The notes below the pieces were generated by a model. The model ran no database searches. It saw nothing but the letters and a program-made list of their open reading frames with translations, and was not told the DNA's origin. The position numbers were made by a program, and so were the translations under genes. 64,000 bases of DNA, taken from NCBI GenBank assembly GCA_964442285.1, contig CAYTZH010000022.1, positions 6,120 through 70,119 of the forward strand, written 5' to 3'. Below, piece by piece: positions 9,635 to 47,488 of this stretch (its first letter is position 1; every line of letters begins with the position of its first letter). Origin of the DNA: an uncultured Spirochaetales bacterium. Lineage in GTDB: Bacteria > Myxococcota_A > UBA9160 > JAFDET01.

Positions 9635-9636
9635 CG

Positions 9637-20129: not shown

Positions 20130-20132
20130 GGG

Positions 20133-31483: not shown

Positions 31484-31497
31484 CAGCTCACTTTCTT
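31474..31497. promoter_or_regulatory. Perfect 10-bp inverted repeat AAGAAAGTGA-cagc-TCACTTTCTT (operator or terminator)
   Basis: AT-rich palindrome overlapping the MFS stop codon, 30 nt upstream of the activase ATG. Confidence 0.4.
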
Positions 31498-31526
31498 TAT
31501 GGCGCTGGACGCTCTATGCTTGCGGC

Positions 31527-32492: not shown

Positions 32493-32511
32493 GACCCGGA
32501 GGAGGGCAACG

Positions 32512-34875
32512 ATGACGCGAAACCTCCGACGCCGCGAACGCTTCTTCGAGGCGCAGCAGGCCTTCACGGTGGACGCGACCCGCGCCCGCTGCCTCACCGC
32601 CGCCTTCCGGGAGAGCGAGGGCCAGCCGCGCAGCCTGGGCATGGCCCGCGGCCTCGCCCGCACCCTGGCGGAGATGCCCCTCATCGTGGACGACGACGAC
32701 CTCTTCGCCGGCAACCTGGCGGGGGCGCTGCTCGGCAGCCACATCTTCCCGGAGCTGAAGGGCGACTACTTCACCACGGCCGCCGTGCCGTGGGAGGCGC
32801 TGCGCGAGGGGCCGCATCCGGTGCACATCGCGCCCGAGGACGCGGCCGTGCTCGATGCCGTCGCGCCCTGCTGGGAGGGACGCACGGTCGAGGACCGCTG
32901 GAAGGCGCTGCGCGACCCCGACGACGAGGCCCTGCACGGCCGCGGTCTCTACTTCCCCTACAACATGCTGGTCGGCATCGGGCACGTGATCGTCGACGTG
33001 GAGCGCGTGCTGCGGCGGGGCCTGGCCGGGCTGCGGCGCGAGGCCGCCGAGCGCCGTCGCGCCTACCGGGCGTCCACGGACGTGCCGGATCCGGAACGTC
33101 TGGCCTTCTACGACGCGGTGGGGATCAGCCTCGATGGCGTGATCCACCACGCCCACCGCTACGCGGGCGCGTGTGCTGCGAAGGCCGAGGCAGCCGGGGA
33201 TCCCGTGCGTCGCGCGGAGCTCGCGCGGCTGGCCGCGGCCTGCCGCCGCGTCCCCGAGCACCCGGCGCGCGACAGCTTCGAGGCCCTCCAGTGCGCGCTC
33301 TTCCTGCTTCACGCCGTGGGCACCGAGTCGTGCCAGATCTCCATCTGCCCCGGCCGGGTCGACCAGTGGCTGGCCCCCTTCGTCGAGGCGGACCTCGCGC
33401 GCGGCGTCCCGGAGGCGGAGATCGTCACGCGGCTCGAGGCCTTCGTGCTCAAGCTGGCCCACTGGCGGCTCTTCTCCGGCGCCGGGGCGGCGACCCTCGG
33501 CGGTGGCAACGAGCTGTGTACGCTGACCGTCGGAGGCTGCCATCCCGATGGCCGGGACGCGACCACGCGCGTCACCGAGCTGGTGCTGCGGGCGTGCGGG
33601 AACATGCGGCTCGCCCAGCCGCCGCTGGCCCTGCGCGTGCATCCCGGCACGCCCGGGACCCTCTGGGAGGAGGCCCTCCGCTGTCTGCGGACCGGCTGCG
33701 GCTCGCCGTCCTTCATGAACGACGCGGTGATGATCCCGGCGCTCCGGGAGCTCGGATTCAGCCGGGAGGACGCCCACGCCTACGCCGACATCGGCTGCGT
33801 GGAGATCGGTACCGCCGGCACCTCGCTCGGCCCGGTGAGCATCGGCTTCATCAACCTGGCGAAGTGCCTCGAGCTCGCGCTCCACGACGGCCGCTGCGCG
33901 CTCAGCGGGGAGCCACTCGGGCCGAAGACGGGGACGCTGTCCTCCCACGGCTCGATCGAGAGCCTGAAGGCCGCCTACGCCCGGCAGGTGGCGTTCGCGG
34001 CCGAGAAGTTCCATCGCTCGGTCTCGGCGCTGGAGCGAGCGCACAGCGAGCTGCGGCCGGTCCCCTTCCTCTCGGCGCTCACCGACGACGCCCTGGCCCA
34101 GGGGCGGGACCTGGTGCGGGGCTCGTCGAAGTACCGCTACGCCGGTGTCGAGGGGATCGGCTTCGCGGAGGTCGCCGATTCCCTCACTGCCGTGAAGCAC
34201 CTGGTCTTCGACGAGGGCAGGGTGGGCGCGGAGGATCTGGAGCACCAGCTCCGTTGCAGCTTCCAGGGCGACGAGCGGCTCCGCCTGCAGCTGGTGAACC
34301 GGGCGCCGAAGTACGGCAACGACGACGCCGGCGCCGACGCCATGATGCGCTTCGTCGCCGAGGGCTTCGCCCACGAGGTCAAGGGGCGGCGAGACCACTG
34401 GGGCGGCGAGTACACCGCGGGCGCCTGGAGCATCCGGCTGGCGGTCTTCCTGGGCATGCTGGTGGGGGCGCTCCCGAACGGAAGGCACGCCGGCGAGACG
34501 CTCACCGAGGGCATCCGCCCGGCCAGCGGCTGCGACCGCGAGGGGCCGACGAGCTGCGTCCGCAGCGTGGCCGAGATCGACCACCGTCTCTTCCAGAACG
34601 GCTCGATCTTCAACATGAGCTTCACGCCCGACATCCTGGACGGGCGGGCGGAGCGGGAGAAGTTCCGCGACCTGATCCGGACCTTCTTCGACCTGGGCGG
34701 CTTCCAGATGCAGTTCAACCTGGTGGACGCGTCCGTGCTGCGAGAGGCGCAGGCCCAGCCGGAGCGCTACCGCGACCTGGTGGTGCGTGTCGCCGGCTAC
34801 TGCTCGTACTTCGTCGACGAGTGCCCGCAGGTCCAGGAGCAGATCATCCAGCGGACCCTCCACGGGGGCCTGTAG
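32512..34875 (+). CDS. Glycyl-radical enzyme, PFL2/dehydratase-lyase branch, substrate unknown
   Basis: 787 aa. Glycyl-radical fingerprint VVRVAGYCSYF near the C-terminus. Single-Cys loop DIGCVEIGTAG. Confidence 0.9.
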   Translation: MTRNLRRRERFFEAQQAFTVDATRARCLTAAFRESEGQPRSLGMARGLARTLAEMPLIVDDDDLFAGNLAGALLGSHIFPELKGDYFTTAAVPWEALREGPHPVHIAPEDAAVLDAVAPCWEGRTVEDRWKALRDPDDEALHGRGLYFPYNMLVGIGHVIVDVERVLRRGLAGLRREAAERRRAYRASTDVPDPERLAFYDAVGISLDGVIHHAHRYAGACAAKAEAAGDPVRRAELARLAAACRRVPEHPARDSFEALQCALFLLHAVGTESCQISICPGRVDQWLAPFVEADLARGVPEAEIVTRLEAFVLKLAHWRLFSGAGAATLGGGNELCTLTVGGCHPDGRDATTRVTELVLRACGNMRLAQPPLALRVHPGTPGTLWEEALRCLRTGCGSPSFMNDAVMIPALRELGFSREDAHAYADIGCVEIGTAGTSLGPVSIGFINLAKCLELALHDGRCALSGEPLGPKTGTLSSHGSIESLKAAYARQVAFAAEKFHRSVSALERAHSELRPVPFLSALTDDALAQGRDLVRGSSKYRYAGVEGIGFAEVADSLTAVKHLVFDEGRVGAEDLEHQLRCSFQGDERLRLQLVNRAPKYGNDDAGADAMMRFVAEGFAHEVKGRRDHWGGEYTAGAWSIRLAVFLGMLVGALPNGRHAGETLTEGIRPASGCDREGPTSCVRSVAEIDHRLFQNGSIFNMSFTPDILDGRAEREKFRDLIRTFFDLGGFQMQFNLVDASVLREAQAQPERYRDLVVRVAGYCSYFVDECPQVQEQIIQRTLHGGL

Positions 34876-34909: not shown

Positions 34910-35617
34910 TCAGCGGGGGAGCGAGAGGCCGGCCAGGCGGGCGCGGGCGCGATCGTTGTCCGGGCGGAGCTCGAGCGAGCGCCGGTAGTGGGCGGCGGCG
35001 GCGGTGGTGTCGTCGTCGGCCTCGGCCACGAGACCGCGGTGGTAGGCCACGCGCCAGGCGGGGGCGCCCAGCCGCTCGGCGGCCAGGAGCTCGCGGCGGG
35101 CGTCGGCCAGGTCGCCCTTCAGGTAGGCCACGGAGGCGGCCGCCTCCCGCAGGCCGGCGTGGTCCGGGGAGAGCTCGATCGATTCGCGGAGCAGCCGCTG
35201 GGCGAAGGCGAGGTTGCCCTCCTCGCTGGCGATGCGGCTGCGCAACAGCGCGGCCTCGGGATGGCCCGGGCGGAGCGCGAGCGCGGCGTCCAGGTAGGCC
35301 TGGGCCCGGGTCGGGTAGCCCACGTCGTAGGACACCACGGCGTTGGCCAGCAACACGTCGGGAGAGCCCGGGAACTCGCTCGCCAGTCGGCGCAGGCCGA
35401 GCTGGATGCGGCCGCAGTCGCGCTCGGGCTGGCCGGCCCGGGGCAGGTCCTCACAGGTCTGGCCGGAGGCCTTCACGGCCTCCCACTGCGCCAGCAGCCG
35501 CTCGAGGCGCGGCGCGGCGTCCTGGCGCTCGGCCGTGGGCCCCAGCACGCCGCGCGTCTGGGCGCAGCCGAGGGCGAGCACCGCGACGAGGGCGACGGCG
35601 CGGATCGGATTCTTCAT
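34910..35617 (-). CDS. TPR-repeat lipoprotein (TadD-like position)
   Basis: MKNPIRAVALVAVLALGC lipobox; several TPR-like repeats; last gene of the Tad locus. Confidence 0.6.
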   Translation of the reverse strand: MKNPIRAVALVAVLALGCAQTRGVLGPTAERQDAAPRLERLLAQWEAVKASGQTCEDLPRAGQPERDCGRIQLGLRRLASEFPGSPDVLLANAVVSYDVGYPTRAQAYLDAALALRPGHPEAALLRSRIASEEGNLAFAQRLLRESIELSPDHAGLREAAASVAYLKGDLADARRELLAAERLGAPAWRVAYHRGLVAEADDDTTAAAAHYRRSLELRPDNDRARARLAGLSLPR

Positions 35618-35620
35618 GGC

Positions 35621-36511
35621 TCAGCCTCCTCCCCGCGCGATGCGGTCGATGAGCTGCACGAACTGGTAGAAGGCGGGCCCGGCGGCGGCTACGAAGAGCC
35701 CGGGCAGGAAGCAGATCACCAGGGGGAAGACGAGCTTCACCTCCAGGGACTCCGCCTGGGCCAGGGCGCGCTCGCGCCGCAGATTGCGCAGGTCTTCGGC
35801 CTGGGTGCGCAGGACGCCTGCCAGGCTCGAGCCCATCTGCTCGGACTGGATGAGTGCGGTGGCGAGGACGGTCATGGCGGGGATGTCGACCCGCTCGGCC
35901 AGCCGGCGCAGGGCCTCGATCCGCGGCATGCCGGCGAGGGCGTCGCGCTGGTAGAGACGCAGCTCGCCGACCAGGGGCTGGCCGGCCGGCTGGGACGCCA
36001 CCAGCCGGTCCACCGCGGCGTCGAAGCCGAAGCCCGCCTCGCCGAGGGTCGCCAGGAGCTCCAGGCTCACCGGCAGGTCCTGCTCGATGGCGGTCACCCG
36101 CGCGCGACGCGCGGAGCGGACCAGGAGCCAGGGGGCCAGCGCCAGGCTCGCGAAGAGGATGAGCGGTCCCGCCTGCAGCACGAGGGCCATCAGCGCGCCG
36201 GCGGGCCCGGGGACGACGCCCACGCCGGCGACCAGGAGCTCGCCCAGCCCGGCGCCGAGCCACAGGAGGACGGCGACACCGGCCAGCGCCAGCGCCCCCA
36301 CGCAGCAGGCCACGAAGACCGCGGGGGCGCGGCGGCGTCGGAAGCCGGCCCGCACGAGCCAGCGCGCCAGGCCCCGGGGACGTCCGCGCCCGGTCTGGGT
36401 CTCGCCCGCGTACAGACGTCCGCGGGCGCGCTCACGCAGCAGCCAGGGCACCGCCACCAGCGCCAGCGCCACCGAGGCCAGCAGGAGCAGCAGGCCGAGC
36501 AGGGGGCTCAT
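35621..36511 (-). CDS. tadC: Tad pilus inner-membrane platform protein, TadC-like (T2SS F family)
   Basis: GspF-like domain (DLPVSLELLATLGEAGFGFDAAV..., ESLEVKLVFPLV) with TM segments. Confidence 0.8.
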   Translation of the reverse strand: MSPLLGLLLLLASVALALVAVPWLLRERARGRLYAGETQTGRGRPRGLARWLVRAGFRRRRAPAVFVACCVGALALAGVAVLLWLGAGLGELLVAGVGVVPGPAGALMALVLQAGPLILFASLALAPWLLVRSARRARVTAIEQDLPVSLELLATLGEAGFGFDAAVDRLVASQPAGQPLVGELRLYQRDALAGMPRIEALRRLAERVDIPAMTVLATALIQSEQMGSSLAGVLRTQAEDLRNLRRERALAQAESLEVKLVFPLVICFLPGLFVAAAGPAFYQFVQLIDRIARGGG

Positions 36512-36547
36512 ACGCGCACCTCCGCCGGGCCGCTCATACGCGCACCT
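36506..36547. repeat. 16-bp direct repeat (gctcatacgcgcacct), period 26, at the tadB-stop / tadC-start junction
   Basis: 36506-36521 and 36532-36547 are identical. This creates ATGA - 9-codon mini-ORF (36537-36508) - ATGA. Confidence 0.9.
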
Positions 36548-37382
36548 TCGCCAGGCGCCACATCCAGAGCAGCCCCAGGGCCTGGAGGATCATCGCCGCG
36601 GCCACCGCGAGGGCGCCGATCCGGGTGGACAGGAAGACCTCCACCCGCTCGGGCTCCCAGAGCCACATGAGCAGGCCCACGCCGTAGGAGATCAGGAGGA
36701 TCGCGACCATGGAGGCGACGGCCGCCGTGGTCTGGGAGCCGACGCGCCGGGCCAGCGCGATGCGGTCGCGCACCGAGCGCCCCACGAGCGACAGCGCCGG
36801 GGCCAGGCTTCCGCCCGTCTCCCACTGGGTTCCGAGGGAGAGGGCGAAGAGCCGGAAGCTCGCCAGGGGTACGCGCTGGGCCGGCTCGCGGAACACCGTG
36901 GAGGGCTCGTCGCCCAGCCGGAGGCGGCGACTCATGTCCTCGAGCAGGGGGCGAAAGGGCGCCCGCGAGGCCTCTGCGGCCTGCCCGAGGGCGGCGGCCA
37001 GGCCGGCACCCGCCTGGAGCGCGCCCACGAGGAGATCGATGGCGTCGGCCAGCTGGGTCTCGAGGCGCACCAGGCGTCGCTCGGCCAGCAGGTCCTCGAC
37101 CAGCAGCCCGAGGGAGAGCCCGATCGCCGTTGCCGCGACCCAGTAGGGAGGCTGCTCGGTCACGAGCCTCGCCACGAGCAGGAGCATCACCCCACCGAGC
37201 AGCGCGGCCGCCAGGGGCTGGCGTCCGACCAGCTCGCGGCCGCGCAGGAGCCCCGGCGGCGCGTCGGCCTCGCCGGCATGCAGCCGGCGTACGGCCAGCT
37301 GGTGGAGCCAGCGGTCCACGCCGATCCAGAGCGCGGCGCCGGCGCCGACGAAGACGAGGGCGGCGACCGCGACGTTAGGCAC
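36534..37382 (-). CDS. tadB: Tad pilus inner-membrane platform protein, TadB-like (T2SS F family)
   Basis: GspF-like domain (QLADAIDLLVGALQAGAGLAAAL...) with TM segments. GTG 37382 follows GGGAG. Confidence 0.8.
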   Translation of the reverse strand: MPNVAVAALVFVGAGAALWIGVDRWLHQLAVRRLHAGEADAPPGLLRGRELVGRQPLAAALLGGVMLLLVARLVTEQPPYWVAATAIGLSLGLLVEDLLAERRLVRLETQLADAIDLLVGALQAGAGLAAALGQAAEASRAPFRPLLEDMSRRLRLGDEPSTVFREPAQRVPLASFRLFALSLGTQWETGGSLAPALSLVGRSVRDRIALARRVGSQTTAAVASMVAILLISYGVGLLMWLWEPERVEVFLSTRIGALAVAAAMILQALGLLWMWRLAKVRV

Positions 37383-37409
37383 GGCGAGCTCCCGCGACGC
37401 TAGGCACGG
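37367..37409. repeat. 18-bp direct repeat (17/18), period 25, at the cpaF-stop / tadB-start junction
   Basis: ccgcgacgTtaggcacgg at 37367-37384 versus ccgcgacgCtaggcacgg at 37392-37409. Confidence 0.85.
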
Positions 37410-38827
37410 GCGCCTCCGGGCGCGTGGAAGAGCGCCACGTCGAGCTCGAGGCCCCGCTGCTTCAGGTCGGCGGTGAAGCGCGGCACGATGCCCGTGGGCA
37501 CGAAGGCTCCGCGCACGCGCCCGTCGACGAGACCGCGGCGCTCGAAGCGGAAGATGTCCTGCAGGAGCGGGGTCGCCCCCTCGAGGCCCACCACCTCGGC
37601 CACGCTCTCGATCCGGCGCACGCCGTCCTCGTAGCGCCGCACGTGGATCACGAGATTCAGCGCCGAAACCATCTGCTCGCGGATCGCCCGGGAGGGAAGC
37701 TCGATGCCCGCCATCAGCACCATGGTCTCCAGGCGCGCCAGGGCGTCGCGGGGCGAGTTGGCGTGGACGGTGCAAATGCCGCCGTCGTGCCCGGTGTTCA
37801 TGGCCTGCAGCATGTCCAGGGCCTCGGCCCCGCGCACCTCGCCGACGATGATGCGGTCGGGCCGCATGCGCAGGCTGTTGATCACCAGGTCTCGGGCGGT
37901 GATCGACCCGCGACCCTCCACGTTGGGCGGCCGCGTCTCCAGACGCACGCAGTGCTCCTGGTCGAGGATCAGCTCGAGGGTGTCCTCGATGGTGACGATC
38001 CGCTCCTGCTCCGGGATCACCTCGGCCAGGGCCCCCAGCAGGGTCGACTTGCCGGCCCCGGTGCCGCCGGAGATGAGCAGGTTCAGGCGTCCCCGCACGG
38101 CGGCCGCCAGGAAGGTGAGGATCCGCTGCGACACGCTCTGGCGACGCAGCAGCTCCTCGCGGCGAATCCGGTGGCGCCCGAAGCGGCGGATCGAGATCGT
38201 GGGGCCGTCGGGCGACGCGGGGGGAATGGTGGCGTTCACGCGGCTGCCGTCGGGGAGCCGCAGATCCACCATGGGCTGCGCGGCGTCGATGCGCCGGCCC
38301 ACCCGGGCGGCGATGCGCTCGATCACCCGCACCACGTGGTCGGCGTCGCGGAAGCGCACGTCGCTGCGCGCCAGGCGCCCGAAGCGCTCGATGTAGACGT
38401 GGTCGGGCCCGTTCACCAGGATGTCGGAGATGGCCGGATCGGACATCAGCGGCGCGAGGGGTCCCACGCCGAGGGTCTCGTCCACGAGCTCCTCGACCAG
38501 GTGCCGGGTCTCCCGGGCATTGAGGGGAATCTCCTCCCGGGCGAGCACGTCCCCGACGAACTCCTCGACCATGCCGGCGAGCGCCTCTTCGCTGTTCTCG
38601 TCGATGTCCCGGGACTCGAGGGCGTCGAGGAGCCGCTCCTGCAGGGCCCCCTTCAGGACCAGGATCTCGGTCGGGCGCGCGTGCGGAGTGCCGGCGGTCG
38701 CTCCCGAAAGGCGGCCCCGGGGCCCGGAGGCCTCGGCGCGGACCCGCAGGTCGTGCATCGACTGGCTCGCCGAGCGGCGCAGCCGATCGCGCAGGGTCTC
38801 GGGCGAGGGCTTCTCCTCGGCGCTCAT
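37400..38827 (-). CDS. cpaF: Tad pilus secretion ATPase CpaF/TadA
   Basis: T2SS E family: Walker A SGGTGAGKST, IVTIEDTLEL, RPDRIIVGEVRG, TGHDGGICTVHAN. Confidence 0.9.
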   Translation of the reverse strand: MSAEEKPSPETLRDRLRRSASQSMHDLRVRAEASGPRGRLSGATAGTPHARPTEILVLKGALQERLLDALESRDIDENSEEALAGMVEEFVGDVLAREEIPLNARETRHLVEELVDETLGVGPLAPLMSDPAISDILVNGPDHVYIERFGRLARSDVRFRDADHVVRVIERIAARVGRRIDAAQPMVDLRLPDGSRVNATIPPASPDGPTISIRRFGRHRIRREELLRRQSVSQRILTFLAAAVRGRLNLLISGGTGAGKSTLLGALAEVIPEQERIVTIEDTLELILDQEHCVRLETRPPNVEGRGSITARDLVINSLRMRPDRIIVGEVRGAEALDMLQAMNTGHDGGICTVHANSPRDALARLETMVLMAGIELPSRAIREQMVSALNLVIHVRRYEDGVRRIESVAEVVGLEGATPLLQDIFRFERRGLVDGRVRGAFVPTGIVPRFTADLKQRGLELDVALFHAPGGARA

Positions 38828-40005
38828 GCCGGCTCTCCTTCGGCGCGAGCGGCGGCCGACCCCTCCACCTCGTCGGTGAGGCCGCGCAGGGCCGGTCCGT
38901 ACCCGAAGCGGCTCGTCACCGAGAGCGCGTAGGGCTCGCCGGCACTCTGGGCCACGAGCAGGCCGCGGCGGTAGGGCAGCACGTGGGCCACGGGCTCGCC
39001 GAGGCGCTCCTCGACGTCCGCCGTGGAGAGCCGCCCGGGATGGTTGGGGTAGTTGCGGTTCAGGACGATGCGACGCCGGGTGGACGCGACGCCGAGGCGT
39101 TCGAGTACGCTCAGGAAGTGGGCCGTGCCGATCACGTCGGGCACCGTGCCCTGGAGCACCACGTAGGCCAGGTCCGAGGCGTCGAGGACGGTCATGACCG
39201 TGGCGTCGAGCAGGGGAAAGGTGTCCACGATCACGAAGCGGAAGCGGCGCCGCGCGAGATTCAGGATCCGGGCCAGCGACTCGTCGTCGACGTCCGAGGC
39301 CTCCATGGCGTCCTGGGGCGCGGCCAGCAGCCGCAGACCGCAGGCGTGGCGCACGGCGAGCCGCTGGAGCAGCGGGCCGTCGAGGCGCTCGCGCTCGCGC
39401 ACGGCGTCCAGGATCGTCGCCGGCGGCGTCAGGTCCAGGAGCGTCTGACACACGCCGAGCTGGAGCGAGGCGTCGACCAGGAGCACCTGATCGGGGTGCC
39501 GGCGCGCCAGGCTGCACGCCAGGTTGGTGGCGAGGGTCGACTTGCCCACGCCTCCCTTGTTGCTGACGAAGCTCACCACCCAGCCCCGCTCGGCCACGTG
39601 GACCGTTCCGCGGGGCTCGTTGTCGAGCCGCTCGAGGATCTCGCGCAGGTCCGAGCTCGCCACGGGGCGACGCAGGAAGTCGTGGACGCGCCCGCGAAGA
39701 GACTCGATCAGGAAGGCGCTCTCCTCGTCGCCGGAGCCGAAGCGCTCGCGCTCGTAGGCGGCCGTGAGGAAGGCCATCGGTGCGGTCTCGGCGAGCTCGC
39801 CGGCGATGGCGCGCAGCGTGCCGGCGTCGCTCCCGAAGTCCGCGCAGATCACCTCCGGCTCCCGCACGCGCGCCAGCTCGAGGCCCTCGCGGAAATCCTT
39901 CGCGTGATGGACGACGACCCGCACGGAGGTCGCGCCCGGCAGCGCCTGCTCGATCTCGTCGCGCAGGCCCGCGTCACCGATGACGAGGAGGCTCGGCGTC
40001 TTCAC
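38824..40005 (-). CDS. cpaE: CpaE/TadZ-like pilus localisation ATPase (receiver-like N-domain plus MinD/ParA ATPase)
   Basis: Deviant Walker A SNKGGVGKST and FVIVDT Walker B. GTG 40005 follows AGGAGG; stop overlaps the cpaF ATG (ATGA). Confidence 0.8.
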   Translation of the reverse strand: MKTPSLLVIGDAGLRDEIEQALPGATSVRVVVHHAKDFREGLELARVREPEVICADFGSDAGTLRAIAGELAETAPMAFLTAAYERERFGSGDEESAFLIESLRGRVHDFLRRPVASSDLREILERLDNEPRGTVHVAERGWVVSFVSNKGGVGKSTLATNLACSLARRHPDQVLLVDASLQLGVCQTLLDLTPPATILDAVRERERLDGPLLQRLAVRHACGLRLLAAPQDAMEASDVDDESLARILNLARRRFRFVIVDTFPLLDATVMTVLDASDLAYVVLQGTVPDVIGTAHFLSVLERLGVASTRRRIVLNRNYPNHPGRLSTADVEERLGEPVAHVLPYRRGLLVAQSAGEPYALSVTSRFGYGPALRGLTDEVEGSAAARAEGEPA

Positions 40006-40015
40006 GGGCCGCCTC

Positions 40016-41356
40016 CTAGCGCACCACCACCGGGGCGCAGACGAGACCCAGTTCGTCGGTCTCGGGCGCGCAGGTGGCGTTTCTGTACTCGAAGAAGAGG
40101 TCCCTGACCGCGTCGTCGGAGAGGGGGGCCAGTCCAAGGGTGATGACGGCGCTGGCGTTCGCCGGGGCCACGGCACTGGTTCGCCGCTGCAGCGTGAAGG
40201 TGGTCGCCCCGGCCGTCGCGATGATCTCGGCGCGTCCGAAGGCGACCACGCGCTCGCGGACGGCGCCCACGACGGCGCGGTACAGGGGCACGAAGGCCTC
40301 GCCGGCGGCGTCGAGCAGCGCGCCGCCCTCTTCGACCTCCTCCCCTGCGAACACCGCCCGGGGCGCGCCCGCGAGCACGCGCCCCACCACCGTGGTGCCG
40401 TCCGGCGCGAAGATCGTCGATCCGACGAGGCTCAGGGTGGTCGCGGTGTCCGTCGACAGACCCTGCCAGGCGCCCACGTCGAAGGCCACCGCGGCGGCGC
40501 CGGGGCCCACCACGGGGTCGGGCCGGCCCACGGCCAGCGCGGGTCGGGCGTCGGCGATGGCCGTCGCGCGCACGGCGAGCCCCCGCTGGCGGAGACCCTC
40601 GTCGGTGAGGCGGCCGAAGAGGACGGCGAGGGTGCCGTCGGGGGCCGAGATGCCGGCCTCGGGCGCCTCGCCCGTGAGGCGCAGCCGGGCGAGGAAGGCG
40701 CGCCGATTCGGGGGGGCGTCGACACCCGGTGTGAAGTCGGCGCGCTCGTAGTTGCAGTTCTCGCCGAAGGTTTCGAGACGGGCGGGGTCCACGCAGCTCG
40801 TGACGCGGGCCCGGGTCGGTCCGGTGAAGGTGCCCCCCACCAGGTCGCCCCGGGCCTCGTCAAAGAGGTTCGGCGCCAGCGGGTCGGGGAATTCGAGGCG
40901 GGGATCGCCCGGACCGACGGGGGGCCCGGCGCCCGTGGCCGCGGGGGCGGTGATCTGCGTCGAGAGGGAGGGGTCGCCGAGGCCGAGGCCGCTCGGATCG
41001 AGCGCGAGGGCGGCCGTGGCGATCGGGCCGACCCGGGCCGTCGCCGCGTCGCCCGCGGCGAAGAGCGCGCCGACGCGCAGGCTGGCGCGCGCTCGGCGGG
41101 CGGCGTCCCAGGCGTCGAAGACGACGCTCGGGTCGCAGCTCGGGTTCGGGTCGTTCTCGCACCAGGCGAGATCGGTCGGATTGCCGCGCCAGCCGCGGGG
41201 GCCCTCCAGGGCCGCGACCTCGGCGGCCGTCTCGAGCCGTCCCTGGGCGCTGTCTCCCACGCCGAGGTCGATCACCAGGGCGGCGAAGGCGAGCAGCGGA
41301 AGCGTGAGCAGGGCGAAGCCGAGGAGGGCGTAGCCGCCCTGGCGCCGATCGCTCAC
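40016..41356 (-). CDS. TadG-like large pseudopilin/pilus-associated protein
   Basis: N-terminal Tad motif RRQGGYALLGFALLTLPLLAFAALVIDLG, followed by about 400 aa of Gly/Ala/Pro-rich sequence with paired Cys. Confidence 0.6.
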   Translation of the reverse strand: MSDRRQGGYALLGFALLTLPLLAFAALVIDLGVGDSAQGRLETAAEVAALEGPRGWRGNPTDLAWCENDPNPSCDPSVVFDAWDAARRARASLRVGALFAAGDAATARVGPIATAALALDPSGLGLGDPSLSTQITAPAATGAGPPVGPGDPRLEFPDPLAPNLFDEARGDLVGGTFTGPTRARVTSCVDPARLETFGENCNYERADFTPGVDAPPNRRAFLARLRLTGEAPEAGISAPDGTLAVLFGRLTDEGLRQRGLAVRATAIADARPALAVGRPDPVVGPGAAAVAFDVGAWQGLSTDTATTLSLVGSTIFAPDGTTVVGRVLAGAPRAVFAGEEVEEGGALLDAAGEAFVPLYRAVVGAVRERVVAFGRAEIIATAGATTFTLQRRTSAVAPANASAVITLGLAPLSDDAVRDLFFEYRNATCAPETDELGLVCAPVVVR

Positions 41357-42426
41357 GGGGCGTCGCCCTCGGGCGACGGCGCCGCAGACCCGTCCGCCCC
41401 CTCCGCGACGGGCGGGGCAGGGGGCACGGGACCGCCGCCCACGGCCACGTAGCGGCGCTCGCTGCCGGAGATCGTCTCCAGGATCGTGTAGCCACCGCCC
41501 TGGGACGTCGACGCGTCGCGTCCGGCGGTGTAGCCGAGGGGCGAGCGGGGGGCGTAGTCGGGGGTCACGCTGTCGACCGGGTCGTCCGGGTGCCCCGAAC
41601 GGATCACCGCCTGCACCTTCGCCTCCACCGCCAGCGCCTGGGTGAGCCGCGCCACCTCGTGGGGCGCCACGGCGATCACCACCTCCTGCACCGGTCGGGT
41701 GCGGGTGATGCCGCCCTGGGTGAGCGTGTTGATGTACACGGGCACCTGGCGCGTGGCCATCGGGGCCACGAGCAGCCCGCTCTGCACGATGACGTCCACG
41801 GTGGCCTGCTTGCGCCAGTTGGCCAGCCCCGGGTCCAGGGTGGTCAGGTCCGCGGCGCGGATGCCCCCGAGACTCTTCGTCTCGAGGCCCTCGGTCTCCA
41901 GCGGCAGCGTGGCGACCAGGTCGAAGCGGTCGCCCACCGCGAGGTCCTGCAGGCCGTTGACCTGGCTCACGTCCACGCGCATCGCCCGCTTGCCCGGCGG
42001 CACGCCCGCGGCGAGTCCGGGGCGGGTGCCCGCGGGCGCGAAGTCGCGCTCCGTGAACGCGAAGCCCCCGGGCTTGGTGCGCTGGAGCACGCGCCCCACG
42101 ATCTTGGTGAGGTCGATGAGCATCGACTCGCGAATCTGCTCCGGCTCGAAGTAGAGCACGGCGACGCGCCCGGTCCGGGGGTTCATCAGGTCGTTCAGGG
42201 TGAGCTTGCGGTAGGCCGGCAGCTCCTTGGGGCTGATGGGTACAGCGACCTTGCCCTCGGGCGGGACGAACGCATCCTCCTCGGAGCCGAGCACCCCGGT
42301 CGCGAAGAGGAACCCGATGACGAGGCCGGCGACACCGAGGCCGAGGATCGCCAGCGGCGCGATCCCGCTGGGCCAGCGTCGTCGGGAGCGGGTGTTCCAG
42401 CGGCTGTCGGAACGTGCGGGGCTCAA
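41353..42426 (-). CDS. cpaB: CpaB/RcpC pilus assembly protein
   Basis: N-terminal TM, SAF-like and RcpC regions (GKRAMRVDVSQVNGL..., GDRFDLVATL). The only start that retains the TM is TTG 42426, overlapping the upstream TGA. Confidence 0.7.
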   Translation of the reverse strand: MSPARSDSRWNTRSRRRWPSGIAPLAILGLGVAGLVIGFLFATGVLGSEEDAFVPPEGKVAVPISPKELPAYRKLTLNDLMNPRTGRVAVLYFEPEQIRESMLIDLTKIVGRVLQRTKPGGFAFTERDFAPAGTRPGLAAGVPPGKRAMRVDVSQVNGLQDLAVGDRFDLVATLPLETEGLETKSLGGIRAADLTTLDPGLANWRKQATVDVIVQSGLLVAPMATRQVPVYINTLTQGGITRTRPVQEVVIAVAPHEVARLTQALAVEAKVQAVIRSGHPDDPVDSVTPDYAPRSPLGYTAGRDASTSQGGGYTILETISGSERRYVAVGGGPVPPAPPVAEGADGSAAPSPEGDAP

Positions 42427-43331
42427 AAATACACCTCGCGGCGGAAGGCGGCCTCGGCCGAGATCACGCGTCGGAACGGCCGCACGACCCGACCGAACGC
42501 CAGCTGGCGACCGAGCCCAAGGGCGCCGGCGTTGGGACCGGCGTCGCGGCTGCCCGTCGCGACCGGAATGCGGCCGACCGTCACCTGGGCCGCCTGGCCG
42601 GGCGCGAGGCCGGTGCAGGTCGTCGTCTCTGCGACGGCGCCCCGGAGAGAGGCGTTTCCATCTGCGTCCACGTTCCACGATAGCAGGGCCGCGGCCTGAA
42701 ATGGGTAGTTGAGACGAAGGGATACGAGGCCTCCGCCCGCGGCGCCGAAGCCCCCGCCCACCGCCTCCAGCACGGGGACGCAGGCGAAGCCCGCGTCCGT
42801 CTCGATGGGGATCACCACCGACAGGCTGCCCGCGCCGTCGCTCACCAGGGCGCCCGGGTAGCGGAGCACGCAGGGCGGCTGGGTGGGGTCGGCACAGGCG
42901 TCGGTGCGATCGAGGAGCATGAGGGGTCGCAGCAGCTGGTTCACGACGGGCAGTGTGCTGAAGAAGGCGTCGAGGTCGGCGTCGGAGCCGCAGTCGAGCG
43001 CACCGTCGCAGCGGATGGCCAGGAAGTCCGGGTCGAAGACGGTCTCCCGCGGCAGCACGGGCGCCCCAGCCAGGACGTCGCAGGGCGGTGTGCCCGTATC
43101 GACGTCGGCGCGGCGACACGCAAGTGCATCGGCCAGGGTGATGCCCGCGGGCGGGAGAGGCAGGAGCGCCACCTCGCGGGCCGCCACCCGGGCGGCGCGC
43201 TGCAGCTGCTGCGCGGCGAAGAAGGCCCGGCCGTAGTCGAAGACGGCGCCGGCCAGGATCACGAAGATCAGGGAGATCAGGGCGAACTCGACGAGCACCG
43301 CGCCGCGGCGATGGCGGTCGGCGGCGCTCAC
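42423..43331 (-). CDS. TadE-like pseudopilin, unusually large (302 aa) and Cys-rich
   Basis: TadE motif RRGAVLVEFALISLIFVILAGAVFDYG. GTG 43331 overlaps the prepilin peptidase stop (GTGA). Confidence 0.65.
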   Translation of the reverse strand: MSAADRHRRGAVLVEFALISLIFVILAGAVFDYGRAFFAAQQLQRAARVAAREVALLPLPPAGITLADALACRRADVDTGTPPCDVLAGAPVLPRETVFDPDFLAIRCDGALDCGSDADLDAFFSTLPVVNQLLRPLMLLDRTDACADPTQPPCVLRYPGALVSDGAGSLSVVIPIETDAGFACVPVLEAVGGGFGAAGGGLVSLRLNYPFQAAALLSWNVDADGNASLRGAVAETTTCTGLAPGQAAQVTVGRIPVATGSRDAGPNAGALGLGRQLAFGRVVRPFRRVISAEAAFRREVYF

Positions 43332-43747
43332 GCCGTGGGCCAGTGGGTCAGGAGACCGTGGGCGAGGAGGCCGGCCGCCATGGCCGGAGCGTAGGCCAGC
43401 TCGCGGGCGCCGCGCGCCGCCGCGATGATCGACAGCACCCCGCCGGCCACGGCGATCGGCACGAGGGCGGCCAGCAGCACCCAGGGGCCCAGGCAGGCGC
43501 CGATCCCGGCCAGCAGCTTCGCATCGCCGCCGCCGAAGGCCCCGAGGGCGAACAGGGCGGCGCCGATCCCGAAGCCGAGGCCCGCGCCCGCGGCGAGGGT
43601 GGACCACGACAGCAGTCCGAGCAGCGCGCCGGCGACTGCGCAGCACGCCAGCGCGACCGGGAACCCGTCGGGGATCTCGTGTCGGCGCGCGTCCACCCAG
43701 CCTGCGGCGACGGCGATCAGCGTGGCGACCCAGAGCAAGCTGCACAT
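43328..43747 (-). CDS. cpaA: Flp prepilin peptidase (A24 family), CpaA/TadV
   Basis: 139 aa, polytopic. Both catalytic Asp contexts present (RRHEIPDGF, FGGGDAKLLAG). ATG 43747 follows GGAGG. Confidence 0.8.
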   Translation of the reverse strand: MCSLLWVATLIAVAAGWVDARRHEIPDGFPVALACCAVAGALLGLLSWSTLAAGAGLGFGIGAALFALGAFGGGDAKLLAGIGACLGPWVLLAALVPIAVAGGVLSIIAAARGARELAYAPAMAAGLLAHGLLTHWPTA

Positions 43748-43763
43748 GCCTCCAAAGCCGAAC

Positions 43764-43793
43764 GGCCCCCTCCGTCGGTGGACGAAGGGGGCC
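43764..43793 (-). terminator. Strong hairpin between flp and cpaA (attenuator/terminator-like)
   Basis: 13-bp stem with one mismatch (43764-43776 / 43781-43793), 4-nt loop; followed on the minus strand by GTTCGGCTTT. Confidence 0.45.
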
Positions 43794-43818
43794 TCGACGT
43801 CGAACGGGCGACGGTCGG

Positions 43819-44178
43819 CTACGGGTTCTCGTCGAGGACGAGCGTAGCCAGATCCGAGGCGTTGGCGGCGCCCAGGAGGTTGGCCCCGAGCCGCTCCGTG
43901 CCCGGAGCGCCCGCGATGGTGGCCGTGTCGAGCGCGATCACGGTACCGCCGGCGTCCGCGCCGATCGTCTCGATCAGCTTGCCGCTGAAGATCGGACCGT
44001 TGTCGTCGGCGTGGGCGCCCGGCAGGACGGCGGCCACGGAGGACACCAGGTCGTTGGTCTTGTGACCGAAGATCGAGACGCCGGCCGAGCTGATCAGGGC
44101 CACGCCCGCGATCAGCAGGCCGTACTCCACCAGCGCCGCGCCGCGGCGGTCGCTCAGGAGTCTGCGAATGAATGCCAT
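43819..44178 (-). CDS. flp: Flp/Fap-family pilin with long C-terminal extension
   Basis: Leader MAFIRRLLSDRRG, then AALVEYGLLIAGVAL (G/xxxxEY processing motif). 119 aa in total. SD GAGAGG upstream. Confidence 0.8.
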   Translation of the reverse strand: MAFIRRLLSDRRGAALVEYGLLIAGVALISSAGVSIFGHKTNDLVSSVAAVLPGAHADDNGPIFSGKLIETIGADAGGTVIALDTATIAGAPGTERLGANLLGAANASDLATLVLDENP

Positions 44179-44250
44179 CTTCTCTTACCTCTCGAGTGGT
44201 TGGTTCCAGCTTGTTCGTGGTCGGGCCCGGATCCTGGCCCGGCCTTCCAC

Positions 44251-46275
44251 CTAGGGAGTGCCGGACGGGGGCTCCGGGTTCCCGGCCGGGTCCGTCCCGG
44301 GCGGGTCCGATTCGACCGCGTGCCCGGGCCCCGTCGCCGCGTGGTGCGGCAGCAGCTCGGAGGCCTCGGGGTACTCCCAGAGCGCCACCCGGGTGAGGGG
44401 CTCCCGGACGATGACCGGGCTGACCACGATGATCAGCTCCTGGTCGTCCTCGTCCTTGTCGAAGCTGCGCCCGAGCCAGCCGATGAGGGGAATGCGGTGC
44501 AGCCACGGCGTGTAGGCGTACTGGTCGCTGGAGCTCCGGTTGAGGAGCCCCCCGATGAGCAGCGTCTGCCCGTCCTGAAGCCGCGCGGACGTGGTCAGGG
44601 TGCGGCTGGCGAAGGCCGAGGTGTTGAGGTCCCCGGCGAGATCGCTCAGGGCGGCGGTCAGCAGGAAGTCGGGCTCGATCACCTGGGGCGTCACGTCCAG
44701 GGTGATCGCGTCGTCCTCGCCCACCAGGGGTCGGATTCCGAGCTGCACACCGAACGGCACGAAGAAGACCGAGCCGAAGACGACGTCGGCCGCGTCGGTG
44801 ACCACCGAGGTGGCCACGGGCACCTCACCGCCCACCTGGAAGGTGGCCACCTCGCCGGAGAGCACCAGGAGCTCCGGGGTGGCGAGGCTCCGCGCGATCC
44901 CCGCCTCGGCGAGGATCGCGAAGAGCAGGTCGATGGCGAACTTCGCCCCCGCCACCTGGAAGTTGTTGGCGGCCGCCCCGCCGAGTAGCGAGAGCGCGTT
45001 CTGGATGTCGGTGCCCCGGCCGCCGCCGATCTGCGGCGCCCCGAGCCCCTGGGCGCGGAGGCCGCCCAGCGTGGGGATCAGGGCGCCCTGCTGGATGTTG
45101 CCGCCGATGAAGTCGCCGCTCGGGGTCCACGAGCTCAGCCGCGAGCGGCTCACCTCGTAGATGCGCACCGAGACCCGGACCTGGGGGAGATCCTCCACCT
45201 CGATGAACGAGAGCAGACGACCCTCGAAGAGCTCGACGATCGTGGCGCGGGCGATGTTGTCGCGCAGGCGGTTCGAGAGATCCTGCGGTCGCAGCCGGAA
45301 GCCGGCGCTGACGCCGCCGCCGAAGCCAGGCAGGCCCTGTACGACCGAGCGTTGGCCGTCCTGTCCGCCGCGCTGGCGGGCCACGGCGCCCGACTCGTCG
45401 GCGATCACGCGGATCTCCCGCTCGATGGAATCCGTGGGCTCGCCGAGCAGACGCCCTGCGACCGTCAGCACCCGGGTCAGGGTCACCTGGTTGTCGACCC
45501 GTCCCGAGAGCAGGAAGGCGTCGCCGGCCCCGGGCACGTCGCCCCGCTGGATGCGTTCGACCGCGACGTTCGCGCCGCCGACCCGACGGACGGCCTGCTG
45601 GATGCGCTCCTCGAGCAGGGCCGGAAGCGTCTCCACCTGGATGAGGTTGATCACGCGTCCCCGTCGCGCCTCCGAGCCGCCGGGCCGGATGAGGCTCGTG
45701 GGGGTCGTCGCGGGCTCCGCTCCGGCTTCGGCCGCCTCGCCGGCGGGACCGGGCGCGGCCGTGGGCAGGATGGGCTCGGTCACACCGCGGGAGCGCCCGG
45801 CCGCCAGATAGGCGGACGCCGCCGCCTCGGCGGCCACGGAGAAGCTCACGTCCGGCACGGCGCCGCGCAGGACCACGGCGTCGCGGTCGGGCGCGGCCTC
45901 GGCCTGGATACCGGGGTGGATCTCGCGGAGCGCGCGCTGGAGGATCGAGAGGTCTCGTTGCACCACGAACACGTACTGCTCGATCTTCCCGTCGGCGAAC
46001 CAGACCGTGAGGCTCGACTGGCCGAGCTGCTTGCCGAGGACCAGCAGCTCGCGCTGGGAGAGGAGCTGGACGTCCAGGCTCTGCTCGTTGCCGAGGGCCA
46101 CACGCACGGTGTCCTGGCGGAAGAGCAGGCGGGCGTGGGTGCCCTGGGCAATGGCCCGTCGCGCGCCCGGGAGGCGCGGATCGGTGCCGATGACGCTCAA
46201 CAGCTCGCTCGCGCCCGCAGGCGGCCCGAGTCCCAGGAGCAGCAGCGCGAGGAACCAGCGGATGGCGCGGCTCAT
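44251..46275 (-). CDS. cpaC: Tad secretin CpaC/RcpA
   Basis: Signal peptide MSRAIRWFLALLLLGLGPPAGA, pilus N-domain, BON-like region, secretin C-domain (TLLIGGLL...IPLIGWLG...ELIIVVSPVIV). ATG 46275 overlaps the sigma stop (ATGA). Confidence 0.85.
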   Translation of the reverse strand: MSRAIRWFLALLLLGLGPPAGASELLSVIGTDPRLPGARRAIAQGTHARLLFRQDTVRVALGNEQSLDVQLLSQRELLVLGKQLGQSSLTVWFADGKIEQYVFVVQRDLSILQRALREIHPGIQAEAAPDRDAVVLRGAVPDVSFSVAAEAAASAYLAAGRSRGVTEPILPTAAPGPAGEAAEAGAEPATTPTSLIRPGGSEARRGRVINLIQVETLPALLEERIQQAVRRVGGANVAVERIQRGDVPGAGDAFLLSGRVDNQVTLTRVLTVAGRLLGEPTDSIEREIRVIADESGAVARQRGGQDGQRSVVQGLPGFGGGVSAGFRLRPQDLSNRLRDNIARATIVELFEGRLLSFIEVEDLPQVRVSVRIYEVSRSRLSSWTPSGDFIGGNIQQGALIPTLGGLRAQGLGAPQIGGGRGTDIQNALSLLGGAAANNFQVAGAKFAIDLLFAILAEAGIARSLATPELLVLSGEVATFQVGGEVPVATSVVTDAADVVFGSVFFVPFGVQLGIRPLVGEDDAITLDVTPQVIEPDFLLTAALSDLAGDLNTSAFASRTLTTSARLQDGQTLLIGGLLNRSSSDQYAYTPWLHRIPLIGWLGRSFDKDEDDQELIIVVSPVIVREPLTRVALWEYPEASELLPHHAATGPGHAVESDPPGTDPAGNPEPPSGTP

Positions 46276-46835
46276 GCTGCGCCCCGAGCGCAGGGTGCGG
46301 CACCGGAGGCCGGTGCGTCGAAGCGCGTCTGGAGCTGGCGGCGGGCCCGATTCAGCCGGGAGCGTACGGTGCCGACCGGTACGGCGAGTCGCTGCGCGAT
46401 CTCCTGGTACTCGAGTCCCATTTCCCGGAGCTCGAGCACCGCTCGATACTCCTCGGAGAGGGAGTCCAGGGCCCGCCGCAGGGCGCGGAGCTCGCGGCGC
46501 GCGTCGAGCTCGCGCTCCGGGTCGCAGAGGGGGCACTGCGCAGCCAGCTGCCCTCCTGCCTCAATCTCCCAGCGACGGCGCCGGTCGCGGGTGCGGCGGG
46601 CGTGCAGGCTGCGATGCACCACGGTCCGCACCAGCCAGCCGCGCACCGACGCCGGGGTCTCGGCGGTCTGCCAGAGGCTGACCAGCGCCTCCTGGACCGC
46701 GTCCTCGGCTTGGTCGTCGTCTCCCAGGATCCGTCGGGCGACCCCGCGCAGGAGGGCCTCGTAGCGATGGGCCACGGCGGCGACGTCGTCGTCGTGCCGC
46801 GCATGACGGGTCCGGTTACCACCGGCTTCTTGCAT
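46272..46835 (-). CDS. ECF-type sigma-70 family factor
   Basis: Region 2 (DDQAEDAVQEALVSLWQ) and region 4 HTH (LELREMGLEYQEIAQRLAVPVGTVRSRLNRAR). ATG 46835 follows GAGGAA; GTG 46865 is an alternative start. Confidence 0.8.
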   Translation of the reverse strand: MQEAGGNRTRHARHDDDVAAVAHRYEALLRGVARRILGDDDQAEDAVQEALVSLWQTAETPASVRGWLVRTVVHRSLHARRTRDRRRRWEIEAGGQLAAQCPLCDPERELDARRELRALRRALDSLSEEYRAVLELREMGLEYQEIAQRLAVPVGTVRSRLNRARRQLQTRFDAPASGAAPCARGAA

Positions 46836-46927
46836 GATCGATTCCTCGCATCGCTCCAGCGCCACGCTGCGCCGGCGGGGACGGCTCTGTGACCGTCACT
46901 CGAATGTGTCGTACGGGGCGGGCGAAC

Positions 46928-47299: not shown

Positions 47300-47488
47300 G
47301 ACGATGAGGTGACGGTCCCGCATGGGTCTTGGGGGGGCTCCTCGCGGGCCATTCTATGCCTCCCGCCGGGGTGGCTCAACCGAGCGGCAGGGCGGCCGAA
47401 AAGCCCCGGTGGTGGGGGAAGAATTCGTGCCCCACTGCCAGGCTCAGCTATTCTGGCAACTCATCCATGCAACTGGGGGGAATCGCGC

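Follow-up and report, generated by a model that had tools for sequence, protein, structure and literature searches.

We analysed a 64-kb stretch of metagenomic DNA (contig CAYTZH010000022.1; hereafter the window), in which twelve co-directional minus-strand genes at positions 34910-46835 encode a sigma factor of the extracytoplasmic function (ECF) type together with a complete Tad/Flp pilus set. The unit starts further upstream than an earlier reading of the same letters (the sequence-only reading) had placed it, with a conserved thirteenth open reading frame (ORF) and a sigma-70-type promoter in front of the sigma gene (Table 1). We propose that this 13-gene Tad operon is switched by a three-step relay, in which the upstream promoter would drive a leader ORF encoding a ribosome-arrest peptide, the peptide would control synthesis of the sigma factor, and the sigma factor would act on an internal promoter in front of the pilin gene. 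From the sequence evidence laid out below, we put the probability of this model at about 0.6.

A CruR/CutF-like leader ORF upstream of the sigma gene

The leader is the first gene of the operon, with the promoter upstream of it and no intervening gene. It is composed of an N-terminal signal or transmembrane (TM) segment, an HSH motif, a CDLC motif (residues 74-77; 47093-47104), a 46-residue spacer, and an RSPP motif (46943-46954) that is followed by four residues and the stop codon; the N-terminal segment, a hydrophobic stretch after basic residues, was judged by eye. A small ORF lies directly upstream of the sigma gene in every related locus (related loci are designated by L numbers). These orthologues have little sequence in common and share a set of hallmarks, namely an N-terminal hydrophobic segment, H-x-H, CxxC, a spacer of 45-47 residues, and R[A/S]PP 2-4 residues ahead of the stop. 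Across the eight orthologues that were measured, the CxxC-to-R[AS]PP spacing was 45-47 throughout, and the motif lay 2-4 residues from the C-terminus. RSPP occurs in the window, L003, L092 and L093, RAPP in L091, and RAPP or RGPP in the other orthologues; RSPP is itself on record as a variant that permits arrest (PMC12992588). A six-frame scan for the signature C..C-N40-50-R[AGS]PP-N0-8-stop found it upstream of the sigma gene in 12 of 12 sigma-Tad loci whose sequence covers this region, including both paralogues of L093, and gave no match in 458 kb of unrelated ECF control loci. Pfam matches of the orthologues to DUF2946 are weak but reach the last profile position in five of eight.

DUF2946 proteins are characterised by CXXC and by RAPP three residues from the end, with 45 residues (plus or minus 1-2) separating the two (PMC9426467). 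Two of them, CruR of Bordetella and CutF of Rhodobacter, are leader ORFs that sense copper via a Cys motif in the nascent chain and control the gene that follows by stalling the ribosome at a RAPP or proline-rich motif near the C-terminus (PMC9426467; bioRxiv 10.1101/2022.11.11.516240). The window leader resembles CruR (Bp2923, Bordetella pertussis) and CutF (Rhodobacter capsulatus) in being the first gene of its operon, in its export signal, in having CxxC (CxxxC in CutF) and R-x-P-P a few residues before the stop at a spacing of about 45 residues, and in the structured intergenic RNA that follows. It differs from them in carrying RSPP for RAPP, in a sequence that stays under the Pfam threshold, and in what lies downstream, an ECF sigma factor and a pilus secretin instead of a copper-homeostasis protein (such as a TonB-dependent transporter, multicopper oxidase or PCuAC). 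Judged by its motifs and their spacing, the leader very probably encodes an arrest peptide of the CruR/CutF class.

R-x-P-P arrest-type small ORFs immediately upstream of ECF sigma genes are also on record in Streptomyces lividans, where SLIV_33595 and SLIV_33605 represent RAPP/RGPP arrest peptides (Fujiwara et al. 2025, PMC12992588). Unlike the leader described here, those actinomycetotal peptides have four TM segments, are unrelated to DUF2946, lack a CxxC at fixed spacing, and have no assigned regulon or pilus link. In the supplement of that paper, the enriched downstream partners include genes of the 'sigma-70 family' and genes for a 'class III signal peptide', with a Rhodopirellula DUF2946 case among them, and pili are nowhere mentioned in the paper. 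As a separate observation, L093 carries two sigma paralogues (9458-10624 and 19563-20370), each with an arrest-type leader of its own (RSPP and RGPP); the secretin gene is coupled to one of them, and CobW/ZnuA genes adjoin the other.

The small upstream protein might instead be an anti-sigma factor of a new type, anchored in the membrane, or a stable structural part of the pilus system, a view that would fit its constant position next to the sigma gene, its TM-like segment and its Cys/His motifs. We hold this to be highly improbable for the following reasons: First, the cytoplasmic N-terminus is short and not conserved (about six residues in L005), so that the conserved part of the protein would be periplasmic and out of the reach of the sigma factor. 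Second, the spacing and the C-terminal arrest motif are kept although the sequence between the motifs is unconserved and of low complexity, which is the mark of a nascent-chain regulator. Third, CutF is degraded after export (bioRxiv 10.1101/2022.11.11.516240), and the same type of ORF heads metal-transport operons and Flp operons that contain no sigma gene at all. An anti-sigma reading of the ORF, classical or novel, was rejected on these grounds of topology and motif. The sequence-only reading had remarked that the sigma gene has no adjacent anti-sigma gene; this holds more widely, as searches with Pfam and NCBIfam profiles detected no anti-sigma domain in the neighbouring genes, either in the window or in the related loci.

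Predicted pairing of the leader tail with the sigma Shine-Dalgarno sequence

In the window, the leader tail (CCC-UCC-UCG-CUC-GUC) can pair with GCGAGGA in the Shine-Dalgarno (SD) region of the sigma gene. The predicted long-range helix is formed by the anti-SD arm CCCUCCUCGCUCGUC and the SD arm GGAGCGAUGCGAGGAA and encloses two intergenic hairpins (46880-46897 and 46856-46875), both of which show compensatory changes. The pairing between ORF tail and sigma SD appears in the minimum free energy (MFE) folds of the window, L003, L091, L092 and L093, and the motif AGUGACGG..CCGUCC is kept in the window, L003, L089 and L091. RNAalifold recovers the helix independently, with compensatory double changes in 9 of its 28 pairs. 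When tails and SD sequences were swapped between loci, the cognate assignment was the best of 120 permutations, and each cognate duplex was better than those of shuffled tails. In CruR, arrest occurs with the two Pro codons occupying the P and A sites (PMC12992588), so a ribosome stalled at RSPP would cover the anti-SD arm and expose the SD. Taken as sequence evidence, the folds and the swap test make it fairly likely that the leader gates expression of the sigma factor. The predicted shielding of a downstream SD matches CutF; in contrast to CruR and CutF, the anti-SD arm lies within the last codons of the leader and not in a separate intergenic stem-loop.

A leader of this class could also work by CruR-style attenuation, controlling Rho-dependent termination ahead of the sigma gene: a stalled ribosome would keep Rho away, and once the stall is relieved, for instance by copper, transcription would stop before the sigma gene. 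Attenuation has been demonstrated for CruR, whose intergenic region measures 162 nt (PMC9426467), and L006, L088, L089 and L090 have intergenic regions of 121-174 nt with no obvious SD-shielding helix. In the subclade of the window, however, the intergenic stretch is no longer than 89-95 nt and for the most part paired, and a covarying helix sequesters the SD, an arrangement more like that of CutF or SecM; we consider attenuation unlikely overall, though a plausible alternative for the more distant loci, while noting that Rho termination and SD unmasking are not mutually exclusive.

The sigma factor and its candidate promoter

The sigma factor contains sigma2 and sigma4 without sigma3 (Sigma70_r2, E = 2e-13; Sigma70_r4_2, E = 4e-16; TIGR02937 over the cut-off), and its profile matches in the PDB (SigE of Mycobacterium tuberculosis, SigH and RpoE) correspond to an ordinary ECF fold. 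More than 120 homologues were retrieved at E < 1e-40, several of them labelled as Myxococcota metagenome-assembled genomes (MAGs). A metagenome scan with the sigma alignment was saturated by the generic ECF pattern and yielded about six true clade members, the rest serving as controls. The same Tad set is present at every locus with a sigma factor of more than about 43% identity and enough flanking sequence (L003, L005, L006, L009, L011, L049 and L088-L093), and Tad genes are present at none of about 70 loci with generic ECFs (28-41% identity). The 4-nt overlap between sigma and secretin genes is found in L003, L006, L090, L091 and L092 as well. This conserved linkage and overlap confirm the sigma gene as a genuine member of the operon, as had been suspected. 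In the literature searched, we found no paper on an ECF sigma factor inside a tad operon.

Among 27 homologues (alignment A1), a CPLC motif in the linker between sigma2 and sigma4 (46524-46535; C101 and C104) is invariant, as is H78 in the last helix of sigma2, and H74 is nearly so. By sequence, H74/H78 and the linker CPLC make up an HxxxH...CxxC pattern within the sigma factor that recalls a zinc site. These residues would allow the sigma factor itself to be the sensor, binding metal or sensing redox in the manner of CorE (ECF238), with the leader reduced to a non-regulatory periplasmic metal-binding protein. There is a likeness to CorE/CorE2-type (ECF238) factors, which have no anti-sigma factor, use conserved Cys residues, in some members in the linker (PMC7826278), and occur in Myxococcota. 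The Cys-rich C-terminal extension of CorE/ECF238 (about 20 aa) is absent here, however; the C-termini are short and variable, the C-terminal Cys of the window is not conserved, and the conserved residues are instead the linker CPLC and the two sigma2 His. Membership in CorE/ECF238 was rejected on this basis. Sensing by the sigma factor would also leave unexplained the RAPP/RGPP near the stop of the leader, the fixed spacing from CxxC to RAPP and the covariation between tail and SD. We regard it as distinctly unlikely, and it could still act as a second layer of control.

A dyad search over intergenic regions yielded the candidate promoter GGAAC-N15-GGCAC, which has a single match in the window (0.41 expected), where it is also the top hit of the position weight matrix (PWM; 26.3 bits). 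Matches numbered 18 in 160 kb of sigma-linked loci versus 1 in 110 kb of GC-matched controls. Two matches are coding coincidences in CpaE; the 17 other instances have the same 15-nt spacing and extra conserved positions, and sit upstream of the pilin gene, of detached tadB/tadC genes, of secreted-protein paralogues or of the leader-sigma pair (L008 and L088). The pilin-promoter position is also occupied in L001, L003, L005 and L090, and the motif was found at the predicted place in three held-out loci, retrieved once its definition was fixed (L091 and L092 at the pilin position). It is likely, from this distribution, that the sigma factor uses GGAAC-N15-GGCAC promoters. With a conserved ECF-type promoter preceding the pilin gene, the sequence-only reading was probably right that the sigma factor controls the Tad genes. 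A sigma-54 reading of the GGCAC element was rejected, as no TTGC is present at sigma-54 spacing. The second-best PWM match in the window, at 34015 on the minus strand (20.8 bits, GCCAC for GGCAC), runs antisense inside a gene for a pyruvate formate-lyase (PFL)-like enzyme and is probably due to chance.

The secreted-protein paralogues that stand behind GGAAC-N15-GGCAC promoters are 260-560 aa long, have no recognised domain and are likely extra members of the sigma regulon (L005, 12615-14705; L088, 2751-3860; L089, 7335-9353; L090, 7400-9267; L093, 13299-15877 and 18335-19357). A tblastn search found no copy of this family in the window.

The housekeeping-type promoter in front of the leader is the only sigma-70-type site in 43600-47700 (0.1 expected), and two scans agree on it. 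Because this promoter, and no sigma-type site, lies upstream of the leader and sigma genes, the circuit in the window would be a relay rather than simple autoregulation. The sequence-only reading had instead seen a divergent, autoregulated device derived from a Tad system, with the orphan sigma factor as its sole regulator and with adhesin display or secretion, not a plain fibre, as its possible output. The conservation of the sigma gene in the operon and the lack of a classical anti-sigma factor agree with that view, and in L008 and L088, where the motif precedes the leader-sigma pair, autoregulation would indeed be the arrangement. In the window, the term 'self-regulated' is half right: the sigma-type promoter fronts the pilin gene and not the sigma gene, which lies behind a housekeeping-type promoter and a leader ORF that the earlier view had ignored. 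Together with the composition of the pilus genes (see below), this makes the autoregulated device improbable.

The proposed relay and the points that weigh against it

In the first step of the proposed relay, the housekeeping-type promoter would transcribe the leader ORF, whose product would be an exported, metal-sensing arrest peptide. In the second step, a ribosome that runs through the leader and terminates would let the helix form, so that the sigma gene and the translationally coupled secretin gene are poorly translated; a ribosome stalled with its P and A sites on the two Pro codons would cover the anti-SD arm and free the SD, and the sigma factor would be made. CutF and CruR suggest, by analogy, that the stall may be set by a metal (copper, possibly zinc) binding to the Cys/His motif of the nascent chain, by the pull exerted during export, or by the two together; the metal might act as either an on or an off signal. 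In the third step, the ECF sigma factor would recognise GGAAC-N15-GGCAC within the 3' end of the secretin gene, and this promoter would drive the pilin gene and then those for the peptidase, the TadE-like protein, CpaB, the TadG-like protein, CpaE, CpaF, TadB, TadC and the tetratricopeptide repeat (TPR) lipoprotein. The hairpin after the pilin gene probably sets the ratio of pilin to machinery.

What the sequences show is the gene content, the motifs with their positions, and the patterns of conservation and covariation; ribosome arrest, its signal, the gating of the SD, the promoter specificity of the sigma factor and the assembly of a pilus are inferred from them. Several results weigh against this model. 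At the level of the leader, the DUF2946 (PF11162) match in the window reaches 14.4 bits (E = 0.067) against a gathering cut-off of 23.7, the best orthologue scoring 18.6, and in tested peptides RSPP, the variant of the window in place of RAPP, keeps arrest only partly (PMC12992588). At the level of the RNA, the window has the least stable tail-SD duplex among the five (p about 0.04 versus shuffled tails), its C/U-rich tail forms good duplexes with strong SD sequences in general, reaching -21.0 kcal/mol with that of the TPR gene versus -18.2 with the sigma SD, and the intergenic RNA of the window as a whole is no more stable than shuffles (z = +1.26). No shared helix was found in the intergenic regions of L005, L006, L089 and L090 (43-174 nt), so the mechanism of SD gating may differ between lineages. 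At the level of the promoter, the first dyad enumeration gave 5 of 7 loci, a count equalled by 10 of 30 shuffles; several of the pilin-promoter instances lie within the coding sequence of related secretins and are not fully independent; and it is co-occurrence that assigns the motif to the sigma factor. The PWM scan detected no sigma-type promoter upstream of the leader or the sigma gene of the window, which is unusual for ECF sigma factors. At last, the source organism is known from metagenome assemblies only.

Metal-related neighbours and leaders in Planctomycetes

Genes near several of the related loci point towards metals. Second CruR-like leaders (CxxC-N46-RAPP) lie next to the sigma-Tad locus in L003 (about 8534-8851, minus strand) and L089 (4854-5207, minus strand), where they head divergent operons of two or three small uncharacterised proteins followed by ABC_tran/FtsX, in L003 also with ArsP-Band_7 and ZnuA; the window has no equivalent of this operon. 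Genes for CobW, ZnuA, FeoB and a pyridine-nucleotide oxidoreductase are located near L093 and L095. Stieleria neptunia and L095, a locus in a large genome, have the same Tad core without a sigma gene, and a DUF2946 leader stands directly upstream of the orthologous Flp pilin gene (CVIC-N44-RGPP and CGLC-N44-RAPP); for the Stieleria copy, a weak DUF2946 match is on record. Published synteny analyses of CruR/CutF list metal-homeostasis partners only.

From this sequence context, we give even odds to a transition metal being the signal. More tentatively, and at odds well below even, an arrest-peptide metal sensor may control a surface organelle through an ECF sigma factor that has no anti-sigma factor, and this widespread Tad subtype, which has an invariant His/Asp-rich loop in its pilin and, in Planctomycetes, the same type of leader right before the pilin gene, may be a metal-responsive fibre that possibly binds or acquires metal.

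The Tad operon and its products

Because the G+C content of the window is about 73%, raw ORF lists carry no information, and a frame plot of G+C at third codon positions (GC3) was used instead, together with start-codon mapping. The GC3 plot shows minus-strand coding without a break from about 46865 to 34910. Start-codon mapping reproduced all genes and overlaps of the 12-gene unit that had been described: 4-nt overlaps join sigma to secretin (ATGA), peptidase to TadE (GTGA), TadE to CpaB (TTGA), CpaB to TadG-like (GTGA) and CpaE to CpaF (ATGA), and the remaining intergenic gaps are 3-72 nt. The hairpin noted 3' of the pilin gene was recovered as a perfect 13-bp stem (z = -3.4). Its U-tract is weak, so a simple terminator scan did not call it; it is a probable partial terminator or mRNA stabiliser. 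As Pfam and NCBIfam profiles match the core families, the locus is, by its sequence, a Tad/Flp (type IVc) pilus operon, as had been claimed.

Table 1 Features of the leader-sigma-Tad operon, listed in the direction of transcription (coordinates are those of the window).
Feature	Coordinates	Strand	Basis and remarks
Housekeeping (sigma-70)-type promoter, TTGAGC-N17-TAGAAT	47351-47379	-	About 28 nt upstream of the first ATG of the leader
CruR/CutF-like (DUF2946-type) leader ORF, 131 aa	46928-47323	-	Orthologues, motif and spacing; alternative start ATG 47299 (123 aa)
Predicted anti-SD arm, last five leader codons	46931-46945	-	MFE folds, RNAalifold columns 19-30:112-124, swap test
Two intergenic hairpins enclosed by the predicted helix	46856-46897	-	Folds; compensatory changes
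Predicted SD arm of the sigma gene, pairing with the leader tail	46842-46857	-	Folds, RNAalifold, swap test
ECF sigma factor, 187 aa	46272-46835	-	Sigma70_r2 and Sigma70_r4_2; Pfam/NCBIfam, alignment A1, PDB profile matches
Tad secretin (CpaC/RcpA type), 674 aa	44251-46275	-	Start overlaps sigma stop (ATGA)
Candidate sigma-dependent promoter, GGAAC-N15-GGCAC	44258-44282	-	Within the last codons of the secretin gene, about 80 nt upstream of the pilin ATG
Flp-type pilin, 119 aa, site RRG/AALVEYGLL	43819-44178	-	Sequence motif, homologues, structural model
GC-rich 13-bp hairpin after the pilin gene	43764-43793	-	z = -3.36
Prepilin peptidase (A24, TadV/CpaA type), 139 aa	43328-43747	-	Peptidase_A24, E = 1.7e-13; no methyltransferase domain
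TadE-like minor pilin, 302 aa, 8 Cys	42423-43331	-	Pfam TadE
CpaB/RcpC-like protein, 357 aa	41353-42426	-	Profile matches under curated cut-offs
TadG-like large minor pilin, 446 aa, 6 Cys	40016-41356	-	Pfam Tad; pilin-type N-terminal helix, beta-rich C-terminal domain
CpaE/TadZ ParA-like ATPase, 393 aa	38824-40005	-	AAA_31/CbiA/ParA
CpaF/TadA secretion ATPase, 475 aa	37400-38827	-	T2SSE, E = 7e-61; no FHA domain
TadB platform protein, 282 aa	36534-37382	-	T2SSF
TadC platform protein, 296 aa	35621-36511	-	T2SSF
TPR lipoprotein (TadD-like), 235 aa, lipobox LGC	34910-35617	-	TPR match and lipobox

Not every component passes its curated threshold. The secretin has T2SS-T3SS_pil_N and Secretin domains (E = 4.5e-34 for the latter), and the TadB/TadC pair matches T2SSF at E = 2e-15 and 6e-14. 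The CpaB/RcpC-like protein scores 23.8 bits against a cut-off of 28.8 for RcpC (E = 4e-5) and also falls below the cut-off of pilus_cpaB (E = 7.9e-13). CpaF reaches 342 bits with the NCBIfam TadA-family model (E = 3e-102), just short of the 373-bit cut-off, and its profile matches are limited to T2SSE and P-loop models. The pilin scores 20 bits with Flp_Fap against a cut-off of 32.2 in Pfam; we accept it as Flp because of its canonical G/AALVEYGLL site and of homologues annotated as Flp pilins.

The whole architecture was found again in at least 12 diverged metagenomic loci, so that of the two things that the sequence-only reading had named as speaking against it, an architecture common in relatives and one characterised in them, the first is the case and the second is not. 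A scan of genome contigs with the secretin as query gave only one close and one distant locus. The order of genes differs among relatives, with TadB/TadC at the end of the operon, divergent upstream or directly after the sigma gene; the position of the secretin gene before the pilin gene, once singled out as unusual, hence carries little weight. The prepilin peptidase gene is missing from the otherwise complete sigma-Tad loci L006, L009, L089 and L090 and must be encoded elsewhere, and the paper on the Kil system makes a similar remark concerning the processing of KilP. The closest relative of the Tad genes of the window is L001 (CAYYUT010000094.1), at 60-87% protein identity; it is titled 'uncultured Spirochaetales bacterium' while other relatives are labelled Myxococcota, probably a problem of binning or of the taxonomy label.

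Most of the other features taken as oddities turn out to be ordinary. The pilin, which had been called about twice the normal length, belongs to a large family: 963 homologues are in the database, more than 120 of them at 55% identity or more over almost the full length, and they include the cultured Planctomycetes Stieleria, Novipirellula and Rhodopirellula, whose copies carry the annotation Flp family type IVb pilin or else class III signal peptide. The major Tad pilin of Myxococcus, KilP, is also about 100 aa long (labelled at A96). Beyond the N-terminal helix, the structural model of the pilin is of moderate confidence only. The alignment of the pilin family (alignment A3) has invariant motifs past the Flp helix (GHKT-D, PGAH-DDN, GK-IET and R..N), which these MAGs and the cultured Planctomycetes share at about 60% identity; His and Asp abound in the loop, and a metal site is conceivable.

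The size and Cys content of the TadE- and TadG-like proteins likewise correspond to a general feature of Tad systems. The "Tip" complexes described in 2025, which their authors consider general to Tad systems (PMC12075869), are made up of large TadE/TadF/TadG-like minor pilins that have many predicted disulfides and end in a C-terminal domain of unfamiliar fold. The TadG-like protein of the window fits this description, with a pilin-type helix and a confidently modelled beta-rich C-terminal domain; only 14 homologues were found. The C-terminal domain has no relative in the PDB, which the view of an autoregulated display or secretion device could claim in its favour. That view is disfavoured by the presence of all core Tad parts with a canonical Flp processing site, by a pilin family that is common and annotated as Flp pilin in cultured bacteria, by large minor pilins as a general Tad tip feature, and by the absence of any effector-like or adhesin gene from the operon. 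We found no evidence for a secretion or adhesin-display device distinct from a pilus. Judging from the sequence, the operon most likely produces an ordinary Tad fibre, built from a long Flp pilin and with a tip of two large disulfide-rich minor pilins.

The locus has the full component set and the Flp G/xxxxEY site of canonical Tad loci (Aggregatibacter flp-tadV-rcpCAB-tadZABCDEFG; Caulobacter pilA-cpaA-F). It differs from them in that the secretin gene comes first, the sigma and leader genes are built in, the mature pilin is about 106 aa long, and there are only two minor pilins, both large, and no RcpB. With the Kil system of Myxococcus xanthus and the Tip complexes it shares a long Flp pilin, large disulfide-rich TadE/TadG-like proteins with an unfamiliar C-terminal fold and, by the labels of homologues, a similar phylum. 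Kil has neither sigma factor nor leader ORF, and it is defined by a uniquely short secretin without N0, an FHA-fused KilF and many associated FHA proteins (PMC8460266). The secretin here is 674 aa long with pil_N, CpaF has no FHA domain and no FHA match was found in the locus, and Kil membership was rejected.

Two genes at 31476-34875 on the plus strand run towards the 3' end of the Tad operon and encode a PFL-like glycyl-radical enzyme (858 aa) and its radical S-adenosylmethionine (SAM) activase, which suggests an anaerobic or facultative lifestyle. Response regulators with GGDEF (and EAL) domains at 2674-4524 and 57784-59628, both on the plus strand, represent cyclic di-GMP signalling and might bear on surface behaviour.

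Implications

The structural oddities of this operon are ordinary for its lineage, and its proposed regulatory wiring is a new combination of familiar parts. The components and their pairwise adjacencies are already catalogued; the three-step cascade, the RNA element and the promoter are not described in the literature searched. Beyond a handful of model organisms, little is understood of how Tad pili are switched on, and ECF sigma factors without an anti-sigma factor are a standing puzzle. If the relay model holds, it would add a new input logic for ECF sigma factors, namely a ribosome-arrest peptide that reads the periplasm and gates translation, and it would extend the CruR/CutF principle from metal-homeostasis genes to a surface organelle. 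It would also provide a concrete pair of sigma factor and promoter (GGAAC-N15-GGCAC) and a compact cis-element for reporters. Although the organism of the window is uncultured, the cultured Stieleria and Rhodopirellula have the simpler leader-to-Flp version, so that a dependence of this Tad subtype on metal is directly testable in them. Should the more tentative metal-sensing reading be true as well, this would be the first ECF pathway with a defined regulon to take its input from an arrest peptide in place of an anti-sigma factor.

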